A stretch of 59,077 bases of DNA from a virus (Duplodnaviria > Heunggongvirae > Uroviricota > Caudoviricetes): the IMG/VR virus record IMGVR_UViG_2690316267_000014. The stretch is one strand, 5' to 3'. This document shows, piece after piece, positions 36,001 through 42,000 of the stretch; position 1 is the first letter of the stretch; each line of letters begins with the position of its first letter. Position numbers: made by a program.

Positions 36001-39000
36001 ATTTCCTGCTCATCAGCTTACTCTCCCCGCGCCGCCTTACGCCGGTCCTCTTTGATTTTGAAATACAGGTTAGTCAGGTACGTCAGCAGCCCAAACAGCA
36101 GACTCCCCAGCACGCCTATTGCCGCCCACTGAGACGGGGAAACCCTGTCCAGCAACTGCAGGAACCAGTAGCCCGTTCCCACCGCTGACGTGGTGTATGA
36201 CACACCTGTTGTGATTTTTTCCATCTGGTACATACCCCGTCTCCCGCAATCCGGAAGCTCACAACAATATAAAGACCACCGGCACACACCGATGGTCCCT
36301 TGCGCATGCTTACATCATCATGTCGCTGTCAGGTGTAGGTTCACCGCCATCTGAAGCACTCCCGTCACCCGCGATACCTTCCGGCTCAGGAACCGCTGCT
36401 ACGCCCAGCAGCTCATCCAGAATGGCATCCACTTCTGCATCAAGACGCGACTCAAGATTCTGGCGAAGTTTCTGTTTCAGTGCGCTCCGGACTTCTTCAG
36501 AGCGCAGGACTTCCTTCACTGCCTCTGCAGTGACCAGGGATGTGATTTCTGACATGGGATTTTCTCGCTGAAAGGGGTTGTTAAGGAGTAACGGGTTCTT
36601 CGGGTTTGCTTCCGGCTGACTGACTGGCGCTGATTTTCTCAGCGGCCCTTTTATCAATCTGCCTGCACCAGAAATCGCGCACAGCCCTGTACCCACCCGA
36701 AAGAAGATACAGCACACAGACCGCCGTACAGAAGTACAGCATCACCTGATGAATAAATGTCATAATTTCTTACCGTTATGGTTGACAATGAGAATTGTTT
36801 TCATTTAAAAAACCAATGTACGAAAGCATCTTTTCTTTACATTCTCCATTGGGATTACCTCCGCCAGCTTCCATTCCTGCCGCTGGCGGCTTTTTTTAGC
36901 AATTATGCGGCTGCTCCAGCTTTGTTTGCTTTAACTTCCACCGTATCAATAAGTACAGGGTAGGTTTCTGCACTACCTGTAATATCCGTAATGACAAACC
37001 TGTTGAGTCCATTAGCAGTATTGGCCCATTTCACCAGGTCAAACGCCTGTCCATCCACACCATCGAGCACCGGAGTAACATTAATGCTGTTACTGCCCTT
37101 AAATTTAAATGCAAGCGTATGCCAGTCATGGTCGAATGCGCCAAACGTGCCAAGTTCTTTTTGTTGATTAACTGTATGATGGTATGCAACATTAATACTG
37201 GCTTTATCTGTCTGGACAAAGAAAGAACTCAGATGGCCTTCACCACCCTCACCCGGCCATTCCGCTATTCGCCAGTACAAACCAAAGGCATACTTGTTTC
37301 TGGTTGTCTCAAGATTGACGTTTTCGGGGATTTTAAACCGGACAGCAATTTCCCCGCCTTTTTCCAGTAAAAGTTTTGCCTTGTCTGCAGCAATATCACA
37401 GTACATTGACCAGGATTTCGCGCTGTTATTTTTCTCAATTCGCAGAGCTTTATTGCCGCTGTCATCAACCAGTGTGCGTCTGCCATACATACCGTCCCAG
37501 CCATAAGGTTTCAGCTGATTGTCTGTAGCTTTTTTGGCATCGTAAAAAATTACAGACTCTGAGGTGGTAACCGGCCTGTCTGGAACAACCACCCCGGCAG
37601 TACCATTAACAAACGCAGAAGACTTACCCGCGCAGCTCAGAATCGCCGTTGCCAGACGGTCGGAAATAATCCCACGGCGAGCCCATGAACTGAAATGGCT
37701 CGCCCTGTCCTGTGACGTCCAGGTGGCTGAGCTGTCACGCCATTTCGAACCGTAATAACCGATACCCGGAATGTCCGGGTCTTCTTCCGGTTTGTTCGTC
37801 GGCACATTCACCCCGTTCTCATCGGTCATGAACGGTACGAAATGGATATTCTTTTCCGTTTTATTTTTATAGCTGCCGTACACCGTCTGGTACGTGGATT
37901 CGTTCTTCTGCTTCCAGAAATACGTCGTGTCCCCGCATATCCAGGGAACACCGCCAGCAGAGCCACCGACGCACTGGCCTGCCATATCCGCCAGGTCTGC
38001 ACGGAATTTATCAACCAGCGCACCAAACTGTGCGGCATGATTTGCCGGCGTACCGCCAAAATCAAATTCCCCCTGCATCCACACCACGGCAAACAGCACA
38101 TTTTTCGGGTTCTTCTCCAGTGCCGCTTTTGTTCGACCGATAAGGTCCTTATACAGCGGCTTGTCCACACCCCAGCGGGTTGAATTCTCCGAGGCACCAC
38201 TCGCGTCACTGTATGTGCCATCAGCTCCGGTGGTGAACGCTGAACCACCACGACAGCACGGAACCAGCAGAATGCCCGCATTCGCCGGTATAAACGGCAG
38301 CAGTTTTTTGGCGATATGCAGCCCCTGCCCCACGGTTCCGTACTGCCCCTTTGACAGGTCCGCTTTCGGATGGTTAAGACGGCTCATGTCCTGCACATCA
38401 TGCAGACAATGGTCCGCCGGAATGATGTCGTTATATTTGCATGCTGCACCGCCCGGTGTCACCGTACTGCGACGCGCTAACTGTTTAATACGTGGATCAG
38501 GGCTGTCGAATGTATCCGGTAATGGCAGTCCCTCACCGTATGACATACCATTGGACTGACCAGCAAGCGCGATCACATAGTAATATTCTGGCGCAACAGA
38601 AGGCGCTGAGGTCGTCGGACGGTTGCCTGGCTCCTCTGGTGATGAGATGCTCCCCTCACTCACAACTGGCTGGATGAACTCCGCACCATAACCAGCTGTC
38701 GAAATCAGCGCACTACCATAAGGCTGCCACCCTTCCTTCAGTTTTTGAGTTATTCGTTTCGCAAGGTCTGACGGCGACGCCGCCCTGACAACATCATAGT
38801 GTTTAAATGCCATGAATCCTCCCGGCCGGGATAATATTGTGAGTAAAATAAGGAGCGGGCTGAAGTCCGGAAGTTACAGGACAATGGCAGAAGGGAGACT
38901 ACAGCCCGCAATTCGAAAAAGGCCGCGCAGTTGCGCAGAGTGATTACTATGGGGTATTATTCGCCAGCTGAAATATTACTTCACGTTTCATTGTTTATTC

Positions 39001-42000
39001 CTTGCCGCCCGCGTCTCCCAGCGCGGGCTTTTTTGTCCATAAGAAAGCCCCTCCGGAGAGGGGCTGGAGAGTGGCGCTATGTGCCATTGCATGGTGCCGG
39101 GGGCCTCCCGGTGAGTTCAGCCCGGTGCCACTAAACCCGCGTCATTCTCGTTTTGATAATCAGAGATTATACCGTCACCAGTCGCCCCTCCGCTCAGGGG
39201 GATTCACCATGCAGTTTTTTCTAACAAATTCTCATCCGGGCAGACAACATTCAACTGACTTAATTGTGAGGTATGTAACATTCCCGTTGAACGGATACAA
39301 AAAAAGCCAGCCACCAGGGGAGGCTGGCAAACTCGTAGAGCAAAATGCTGTTACGCAAACTTCGTTACAGGGTTATCCTGCAATACTTAAAATATACAAT
39401 ATTTAGAAAACTAATAGTGCCATATGAGATTTTTAAGATTTTGTTATTAATTGCGGTCGTACCTTCCTTTCTGTGTACTTTCCGTATAGCTCACAGGATT
39501 CTGGGTACAAAAAAACCCGCGCATCGGCGGGTTAAGCAGCGTGGCAATGTAACCACTCTTATCATGATATGCAGATTTTTACGATCGTAAACTATTTTTT
39601 CGCTGATAAAATACAGAGCTTCTCCCTCCCGGCAATTCACGCTCAACATACCGATCCATCTCAAGCCTCACTCCCAGCATCATCAGCATGCCTTCAACAA
39701 TCCCCTCCGCTTTGTGAAGGCGTTTACCTATACAGGTGTCAGAGCACCCATGTTTCCGTGCCAGCGCCATGAACGTCTCCCCCAACACGTAGTAATCAAC
39801 CAGCAAGTCATGCAGATCGCGATTGTTCCGGTAAAGGCGGGCTATGCACCCGCATATCACCATCGCATCATCGTCACAGCACTGTGGACGTGATTTTACT
39901 TTTTCGGGGATCAGTCCCTTAAATCCGGCAGCAATGGGCGACCATGTAACATCCTCATAGTTATTTACCGCCCATGCCCCCCAGCGCTCAAGAACCTGCC
40001 GGATGTCACGCATCAGTATCTTTACCCCATCCGCGATGAACCATAAGGACGCCATTGACGACGGCGTGCTTTTTCGCATCTTTATCATCAATGTATTTTC
40101 TGACTGTAGCACGATTGCAGTTCAGTATTCTGGCGACTTCTGTCTGATTTCCCCTGGTGCAGATCAGTAATTCAGGTATCGTTTGAATTTTAGCATTCAT
40201 CAAATGTTCTCCAGTTCGGTGATTTTTATCCCCACTCTACCGCCAGGCACTTTCACGCCGCGAATTACGCGAATGTCATCGAATTGCTCGTCGTCGTCCG
40301 CAAATCCGGCGTGGATAAGAGAGTCGAGTAAACCTTTCAGGATGTTATCGAGGTCGCGACGGCGGGAATCTGGTGGTTCAGCAATAATTGTGATGCGAAG
40401 TCGTGATTTAGTGAAAATGTCTAATCTGAGTTGCCGGATGATTTGCTGTACGTCTTTTCGGTATTTCTGGCCTTTATCGCTGATGTAGTACTGGCTTCCC
40501 CGTCTTCGCCAGTAGGTATTCACCGTCGGCGGCCAGGGAAGCACAAACTCATATTCATTCATGACTTAATCTTCCCCTCCTTCAGCAATATCGCCTGCGT
40601 CCTGATCACGCCTTCCAGGTGGTAAAGTCTGGCGTCGTTGTTGTCGAGAATTCGGGTGCGTCGGTCGATCTCCGCGTGGCAGTCACTACAAGCCCATGCA
40701 CCGATCAGGTCGTCAGGCTTCATTCCCGTTCCGCAAATTCCAGCCATCCGGTAATGTGCCAGAACTGTCGTTTCAGGATTGCCATTGCATACGCCGTAAA
40801 TCCGTACCTGGCATTCTCTGCCGCGCGCTTCTTTGCGTAGGTTTGCCATCATCTTATTCCTCGTACATTGAACTATCCGGAGTGACTATTAAATCTTGCA
40901 CGACGTCTGAGCCACCGGACATCCCACAGGTGAGACGTATAATTGAAGGTTTTTACATCAGATTCGTTGGGGATTGGCCTGGGTTTATTTCGGGAGCGTT
41001 TCGTTGGAAGGTAATTGCAGTTTTCACAGACTATATCGGTAATGCTTCGTCGCTGTCGTCTCATTCATACCTCCTGTCGGTAAATCTGACACCCTGCTCC
41101 ACAGCCCAGGAAGTTGTGTACTCAATCAGGCTTGCCATACGCTTCACGCTCATCTGCGCACTGCTTTCGCGGATATTGACGTATTCACCTTCAAGACCTG
41201 GCAAAACATCAGCTTCCTGTTTTGTAGCCACGGCATGACCGCTGATTAACAAAACTTTCCACTGTTCTGGTTTTAGCCATCTGCCGCACCACTGAACCTG
41301 TCGGGAGATATCAGCGACCATCGCGTGAAATTTGGCATTTTGATCGAGATTCCGCTTGTAATCGGTGATGCGGATCGTAACGGGTTTGTCTTTATCGAGA
41401 GTTGTTGCAAGGATGGCGTTAATGGCGAATTGTTGCTGCTGCTTACTTCGGAGGAAGATAGTCTGGTTCATTATTCCCTCTCACTGGATTTTCCCAACAA
41501 AAAAGGAGCCGAAGCTCCTTTAGTTTCAGAATTCAAATTGTCTTGCCCGCAGGCTTTTCAGCATTGGCATGGCCCGCTGGATAATGGAACTTGACATGTC
41601 GAGACGTGTTACCTCCCTTAGTAGCGCGTCTCTGTTCTTCGTCACCATGTAGATGGTCTCAAACGCAATGTCATACAGCTTGTTCGTGTATGAGGAGTTC
41701 AGCTCTTTTATAATGGGATACAGGTGTTTGCTGAGGTCCTGGGCTTTTTCCATCCAGAGCTGCATGTAGCAAAGGAGGATGATTTCTTCGGCTGTGAATT
41801 GTGGCTGAATCTGCGGCTGCTGTTCGGTTGGTGCTGTTTTTCCCTGGCTGAAATAGCAGTCTTCCAGTTTTTCGAATACCTCCCACGCCCGATCGGTTTC
41901 GAGCATTTTTGCGTGACGGGCTGCGCCGCGTTCTGTCCAGAGGATGAGGGAGCGGGCATTTTTACCAACTAACCCGATTGTTTCGGGTCTGTTCTTAAAC

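Follow-up and report, generated by a model that had tools for sequence, protein, structure and literature searches.

The stretch of DNA analysed here, 59,077 nt of the tailed-phage record IMGVR_UViG_2690316267_000014 (at its full length referred to as the window), carries nanS-p, a gene for a sialate O-acetylesterase, downstream of a Q antiterminator gene. We are confident that the feature as a whole represents the late-transcription control region of a short-tailed, Shiga-toxin (Stx)-type (Sepvirinae-like) Escherichia coli phage, which has neither stx nor tRNA genes and which keeps the small RNAs (sRNAs) StxS and STnc100 together with nanS-p as the phage's own late protein. The elements of this region are given below in the direction of late transcription.

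39579-40013, minus strand: Q antiterminator gene, 144 aa (435-nt coding sequence by the RefSeq start of the O104:H4 homologue; PF06530, E = 3.8e-50)
39564-39591, minus strand: putative late promoter pR', overlapping the end of Q (-35 TTTACG, 16-nt spacer, -10 TATCAT; promoter scan)
39299-39557, minus strand: StxS homologue, predicted pR'-to-tR' transcript of ~258 nt
39507-39533, minus strand: first hairpin (39533-39514) with seven T, within the StxS 5' part (terminator scan; putative terminator in the phi24B record)
39299-39330, minus strand: tR' late terminator and 3' end of StxS, hairpin 39330-39311 with T-run (terminator scan, phi24B annotation)
39270-39299, minus strand: 30-nt junction, its place taken in relatives by 459-1790 bp (methylase remnant plus three tRNAs, in some also stxAB; alignments, blastn)
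39035-39240, minus strand: STnc100 (RF02076) sRNA (Rfam, 162.6 bits at a gathering threshold of 47, E = 1e-36, full model 1-206)
38962-39036, plus strand: speculative candidate antisense small RNA (-10-like TATTAT, GC hairpin 39007-39028, T-run; no Rfam family)
38918-38938, minus strand: fourth late-strand terminator-like hairpin (38938-38923), ~110 nt upstream of nanS-p
36903-38813, minus strand: nanS-p, intact, 636-aa sialate O-acetylesterase

The Q stop codon and the nanS-p start lie 765 nt apart. The longest open reading frame (ORF) of Q extends to 40112, and the Q region is 99.5% DNA-identical to that of an E. coli O104:H4 prophage. In the GenBank record of phage phi24B, pR', qut and both terminators are annotated as far from the Q stop codon as they lie in the window. 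As described by Sy et al. 2020 (PMC7547250), StxS of the enterohaemorrhagic E. coli (EHEC) strain Sakai is the 258-nt transcript which runs from pR' to tR' directly after Q. It is cut by RNase E at GU|AUU (+173), and the stable 3' fragment left by this cut binds Hfq and activates rpoS translation, as reported for EHEC Sakai only (PMC7547250). In analogy, the transcript predicted here would start near 39557 and end in the T-run 39305-39299, corresponding to ~258 nt, and the RNase E motif is found at 39386-39382, i.e. about +173 from the start. Compared to stxS2 of the Sakai prophage Sp5, the homologue exhibits ~11 mismatches over 258 nt (~96% identity), and its processed 3' part, which carries the seed, is identical except for 2 nt in the terminator loop. 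Furthermore, a fold z-score of -2.6 was obtained. The position after Q, the length, the cleavage motif and the 3' fragment sequence all agree with StxS.

The first hairpin, located ~25-50 nt past the presumed pR' start, resembles a strong intrinsic terminator. Term-seq on the identical Sakai hairpin sequence nevertheless revealed the main 3' end at +258 (PMC7547250).

The second RNA, STnc100, ends with a terminator at 39065-39046 (minus strand). RNAalifold with three divergent relatives gave a consensus of 47 pairs, five of them with compensatory changes, and Stx2a phages, O104:H4 and the tRNA-only phage phi296 all carry the element in this position. In Sakai Sp5 it lies 75 nt after stx2B, with the antisense RNA AsxR just beyond. 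According to the literature, Hfq-binding sRNAs flank stx, StxS being located 5' of the genes and AsxR/EcOnc27 3' of them; the Hfq-binding sRNA EcOnc27/sRNA103, detected in Sakai and EDL933, partly overlaps the STnc100 copy in O157 phages, and STnc100 itself was found by reverse-transcription quantitative PCR in vesicles from E. coli strains that make Shiga toxin. Judged by sequence, the window keeps one RNA from each side of stx, StxS and STnc100, without the toxin genes. A convincing sigma-70 promoter for STnc100 was not found; the conserved TTGA(C/A)A box at ~39254 is without a good -10 partner. As a separate observation, two viral contigs with this same interval, the IMG/VR loci L010 (~9918-9923) and L014 (~1216-1221), exhibit a 38-nt deletion in STnc100 (equivalent to window positions 39124-39087), by which most of two central hairpins is lost.

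In order to locate any remains of a toxin or tRNA cassette, the window was compared with Stx phages and scanned for tRNAs. In tblastn searches with Stx2A and Stx2B over the window the best match had E = 0.13 and lay outside the interval between Q and nanS-p. The 1790-bp Sakai cassette gave only chance matches of 12-17 nt to the window in short-word blastn, none of them in the interval. Neither ARAGORN, run over all 59 kb, nor the Rfam tRNA model detected a tRNA. Both hallmarks of Stx-converting phages, stxA/stxB between Q and nanS-p and ileZ-argN-argO after tR', are missing here. Window positions 40120-39300 match the Stx2a phage LC645409 at 94.9% and positions 39269-38790 match it at 91%, the latter segment corresponding to the stretch just after stx2B; between these segments LC645409 holds 1790 bp (methylase remnant, three tRNAs, stx2A and stx2B) which are absent here. 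The left breakpoint is the same in the comparison with Sakai Sp5. Measured from the tR' T-run to the conserved TCACAATT box, the distance is 30 nt in the window, 459 in Nil3, 486 in phi296 and 1790 in Stx2a phages. The original prediction had described the locus as a toxin-free relative of the Q-stx-nanS-p architecture, with an interval free of toxin genes, tRNAs and credible ORFs, and this description is borne out: the flank at 40120-39300 is 95-96% identical to Stx2a phages, the one at 39269-38790 is 91% identical to an Stx2a phage, and neither stx nor tRNA remnants were detected.

With respect to ORFs, some phage records call short hypothetical ones on the plus strand of the interval. Three such frames were considered as genes (134 aa, 39002-39406; 81 aa, 39345-39590; 67 aa, 38931-39134) and ruled out, since indels of 1, 4 and 14 nt in related copies break the frame and RefSeq annotates nothing in the near-identical O104:H4 interval. 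The earlier view that the interval holds only two minus-strand terminators was correct for the hairpins at 39533-39514 and 39330-39311, both followed by T-runs, but not for the "only": StxS, STnc100 and further hairpins at 39065-39046 and 38938-38923 (minus strand) and at 39007-39028 (plus strand) are present as well. The fourth late-strand hairpin (38938-38923) is invariant among the compared variants except for one stem base. The candidate antisense RNA occupies the position of AsxR in Sakai Sp5, is unrelated to it in sequence and has a fold z-score of -2.4; it is identical in phi296, and in an Stx2a phage one base upstream of the -10-like element differs, so that no covariation could be observed. 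AsxR (RF02703), for which the Sakai copy scores 88 bits, gave no match within 36500-40200 even at E<=1, and the same holds for AgvB and Esr41; weak Qrr and anti-hemB matches in this range were mere terminator hairpins.

The product of nanS-p is composed of three parts: DUF1737 (PF08410, aa 3-53, E = 4.9e-18), an SGNH/SASA domain (aa 72-393) and a lectin-like DUF6645 domain (PF20350, aa 426-630, E = 1.6e-28), which together are the hallmarks of NanS-p. The catalytic domain aligns with the chromosomal NanS (YjhS, PDB 3PT5) with E = 3.5e-118, and for the C-terminal domain the match is the NanS-p lectin-like domain of PDB 6YP6 (E = 4.9e-42). All four SGNH blocks, which comprise those of the nucleophile Ser, the oxyanion Gly and the His base, are kept, namely GQSNG (with Ser87), RGGSAF (188-193), MQGEFD (246-251) and RASHFS (with His373); in 3PT5 the blocks read GQSNA, RGGSAF, MQGEFD and R-x-SHFS (PMC10792757). 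The gene is intact at 36903-38813, as had been predicted, and the enzyme is an active-looking SGNH esterase with its catalytic motifs in place. The protein is identical in 635 of 636 residues to the O104:H4 protein WP_000874468.1. A review reports esterase activity for each of the five prophage NanS-p enzymes in a C227-11 (O104:H4) derivative cured of the Stx phage, counts nanS-p among the late genes with the strongest response to norfloxacin, and states that NanS-p lets lysogens grow on 9-O-acetylated sialic acid. The occurrence of nanS-p in non-Stx prophages was noted in another paper.

A role of this protein in the virion is suggested by comparison with gp84, the NanS-p of phi24B. A 2026 preprint describes gp84 as decorating the capsid, whereby a DUF1737 hexamer sits on the hexons via Tyr42 and the density ends at Gly54, followed by SISSP. 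Residues 1-122 of the protein in the window are identical to gp84, including Tyr42, Gly54 and SISSP (55-59), and identity is ~99% over residues 1-392. In addition, the major capsid protein is 95% identical to its phi24B counterpart, so that both the N-domain with its contact residues and the cognate capsid protein are present by sequence. The C-terminal lectin-like domain (aa 393-636, 36903-37640) is a different allele, ~45% identical to that of phi24B. The NanS-p found here is therefore most likely a virion-associated late protein that would decorate the capsid, and its retention without the toxin is explained by this probable role. Apart from this, the boundary between the NanS-p alleles, a recombination boundary, falls at the interdomain linker.

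From nanS-p to the virion genes, 24.9 kb show 93-95% DNA identity to more than 160 Stx-type phage records. ORF mapping and PHROGs gave the same gene order as in phi24B, i.e. terminases, portal, a 335-aa protein, the major capsid protein and a giant 2784-aa protein, so that a syntenic and highly similar late region of the Sepvirinae-type (933W/phi24B-like) podophages is present. Early-left-operon phage genes are found at both window ends (1-4700 and 54500-59077), one end having antirepressors, ead/Ea22, DUF551 and TraR, the other bet, exo, ead/Ea22 and TraR. With such genes at either end, the 59 kb probably represent an entire phage genome in circularly permuted form and not a prophage flanked by host DNA.

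Taken together, the locus could operate as follows. The 765 nt between Q and nanS-p would serve as the late-transcription control region, in which pR' fires constitutively. Without Q, RNA polymerase would stop at tR' and release the StxS homologue of ~258 nt. Further downstream, a second structured sRNA gene, STnc100, with its own predicted terminator would be followed by one additional terminator. After induction, Q-modified polymerase would read through all four terminators into nanS-p and the lysis and virion/morphogenesis genes. The NanS-p made in this way most likely docks on the capsid by its DUF1737 N-domain, and would as such be part of the phage's late programme and not a leftover of a toxin cassette. 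The toxin/tRNA cassette, which relatives have between tR' and STnc100, is simply missing, with the 30-nt junction in its place.

Several points weigh against this picture. The transcripts are predictions from motifs and homology. The first hairpin with its seven T (39533-39507) could curtail the production of StxS, yet the identical Sakai sequence gives a 258-nt RNA. STnc100, being without a convincing promoter, may arise only by processing or read-through. For the esterase, the activity given in the review applies to the five O104:H4 enzymes as a group. Finally, capsid decoration hangs on one preprint, on phi24B, and the C-terminal domain is only ~45% identical to that of this phage.

Directly downstream of the esterase, on the minus strand, a DUF1378 ORF, a DUF826 ORF, a P21-type holin and a lysozyme follow. 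In the enteropathogenic E. coli strain E2348/69 the sRNA PasA lies between esterase and holin, as described in a preprint; the equivalent stretch here is 36764-36902 (minus strand), from the stop codon of nanS-p to the DUF1378/DUF826 ORFs. Between Rz and the terminase, an Ais/PmrG-like lipopolysaccharide core heptose(II)-phosphate phosphatase is encoded at 33991-34605 (plus strand), against the direction of late transcription. This Ais-like phosphatase adds a second accessory gene to the late region.

How the 30-nt junction came about can be judged from its distribution and its flanks. The 765-nt interval is found at 99.2-99.7% identity in ~30 complete E. coli genomes, among them those of O104:H4 outbreak isolates, of ML35 and of an O10:H32 strain, and the number rises to 62 complete genomes if the tRNA-only forms are counted. 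Furthermore, 11 IMG/VR contigs contain the exact 38-mer spanning the junction, and in nine of these the interval is present in full at 99% or more. For the origin of the junction, we give somewhat better than even chances to a recent deletion from an Stx-converting or tRNA-bearing phage, in which the sequence separating the tR' T-run from the box upstream of STnc100 was shortened by 0.46-1.8 kb. Identity to Stx2a phages is 91-96% on both sides, every comparison gives the same left breakpoint, and the right flank has ~15 extra nt in common with the tRNA-only phi296. In addition, the junction opens with 9-17 nt (TGTATCCGT..TCAA) that are loosely similar to the beginning of the methylase remnant (ATGTCCGTAGCGTCAA). 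However, this resemblance is short, and no tRNA or stx fragment is left. The junction is moreover fixed and widespread, as the counts above illustrate (~30 complete genomes at 99% or more), and therefore not the product of a one-off recent event.

Alternatively, the slot might be ancestral and never occupied, with tRNA and stx cassettes inserted later in other lineages, which we consider unlikely. Such an origin would fit the clean boundaries, which fall at functional edges where tR' ends and the STnc100 region begins, and the modular contents of 30, 459, 486 and 1790 nt. In the cassette-bearing forms, however, the sequence after this same left boundary opens with a truncated methylase gene, which points to repeated deletion or recombination there and not to insertion into an empty site, and the junction itself is loosely like the methylase remnant. 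Because of this truncated methylase and the remnant-like junction, deletion or recombination at a recurrent boundary is favoured over an ancestral empty site, with a junction too short to settle polarity. Doubtful to a similar degree is the proposal that the junction represents the unoccupied state of a defined cargo slot between StxS/tR' and the TCACAATT box with STnc100, at whose fixed breakpoints tRNA and tRNA-plus-stx cassettes move as units. If true, the gain and loss of toxin among E. coli phages would involve such elements either as recipients or as products.

Less probable still is the reading put forward in the original prediction, in which an empty cargo site holds only two terminators and nanS-p remains as the sole late-expressed cargo (moron) of the Stx architecture. 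It is in accordance with nanS-p in its usual place after the stx slot, with an interval free of ORFs, tRNAs and stx, and with the benefit that growth on 9-O-acetylated sialic acid brings to the host. Nevertheless, StxS and STnc100 lie in the interval, and in its N-domain NanS-p does not differ from phi24B gp84, where this domain is the capsid-binding one. With the gp84-like N-terminal half and the Ais-like phosphatase as another accessory gene in the late region, the esterase is not aptly called the sole late-expressed cargo. A decayed cryptic prophage, with nanS-p and control elements that have lost their function, is very improbable: many EHEC nanS-p copies are located in defective prophages, but the ORFs from Q to the virion genes are all intact and syntenic with phi24B and Stx2a phages, the catalytic motifs are intact, and the early-left-operon genes at both window ends are as in a complete permuted phage genome.

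Further Rfam matches in the window lie outside the late control region. A C4 antisense RNA (75 bits) and isrK (70 bits) are adjacent at 42245-42430 (minus strand), just upstream of an ORF6N antirepressor gene (41526-42191); this pairing is like the Gifsy-type IsrK/antirepressor control module, and the same pair is found in the O104:H4 prophage and in phi296. The sok antitoxin RNA (117 bits, 44308-44482, minus strand) is located beside a hok-type locus. Finally, a lambda cIII thermoregulator (88 bits, 53971-54029, plus strand) and sRNA-Xcc1 (73 bits, 814-899, plus strand) were identified.

The arrangement as such is ordinary and already known, as the same locus is present in public genomes including O104:H4 outbreak strains. 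On its own it is of little significance: nanS-p in non-Stx prophages has been documented and assayed, and the exact locus is contained in O104:H4 outbreak genomes. What matters is that two toxin-neighbouring RNAs, StxS and the STnc100 element overlapped by EcOnc27, are kept unchanged in a toxin-free phage. Since both persist without the toxin, their selective value is independent of it. The esterase, in turn, is better seen as a phage virion or late protein than as toxin-linked cargo.

Among known systems, the Stx2a-converting phages (Sakai Sp5, 933W, phi24B, LC645409) have the Q type, pR', qut, StxS and tR' in common with the window at 95-96%, carry STnc100 upstream of nanS-p as well, and match it in the lysis cassette and the podovirus virion genes at 93-95%; the window differs from them in the lack of the 1790-bp block (methylase remnant, ileZ-argN-argO, stx2AB) and of AsxR, and in its other NanS-p C-terminal allele. 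The best full-interval matches among sequenced phages, 95% in two pieces, were obtained for the stx-negative Traversvirus vB_EcoP_phi296, TL-2011a and PPwrbA prophages, which carry the same StxS and STnc100 variants. In contrast to the window, phi296-type phages keep a 456-bp segment with the methylase remnant, tRNA-Met/Ile, two tRNA-Arg and a terminator. Still closer is the non-Stx prophage of O104:H4 2011C-3493 (NC_018658, ~2540.7-2553.5 kb; also in C227-11 and others), which is 99.5% identical from Q to the nanS-p start. It has the same order of hok/sok, toxin-antitoxin, ORF6N antirepressor, ninB..ninH, Q, the 765-nt unannotated interval and SASA esterase, and continues alike with DUF1378, DUF826, holin, lysozyme, Rz, an Ais-like phosphatase identical to the window copy in 193 of 193 residues, and terminase. 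Differences comprise a few point differences and the early-left region, for which the window best matches other strains, e.g. AST198 at 100%.

On the level of the individual elements, StxS (PMC7547250) and its homologue are alike in position, in the 258-nt length, in GU|AUU at ~+173 and in the 3' part, whereas its stx1B-silencing role would be left without a cis target in a toxin-free phage. Chromosomal NanS (3PT5) is alike in the SGNH core blocks and does not have the extra N- and C-terminal domains. In the comparison with phi24B gp84 (vb_24B_21, 6YP6), the C-terminal domains are ~45% identical and belong to a common lectin-like fold family, and the DUF1737 N-domain is identical.

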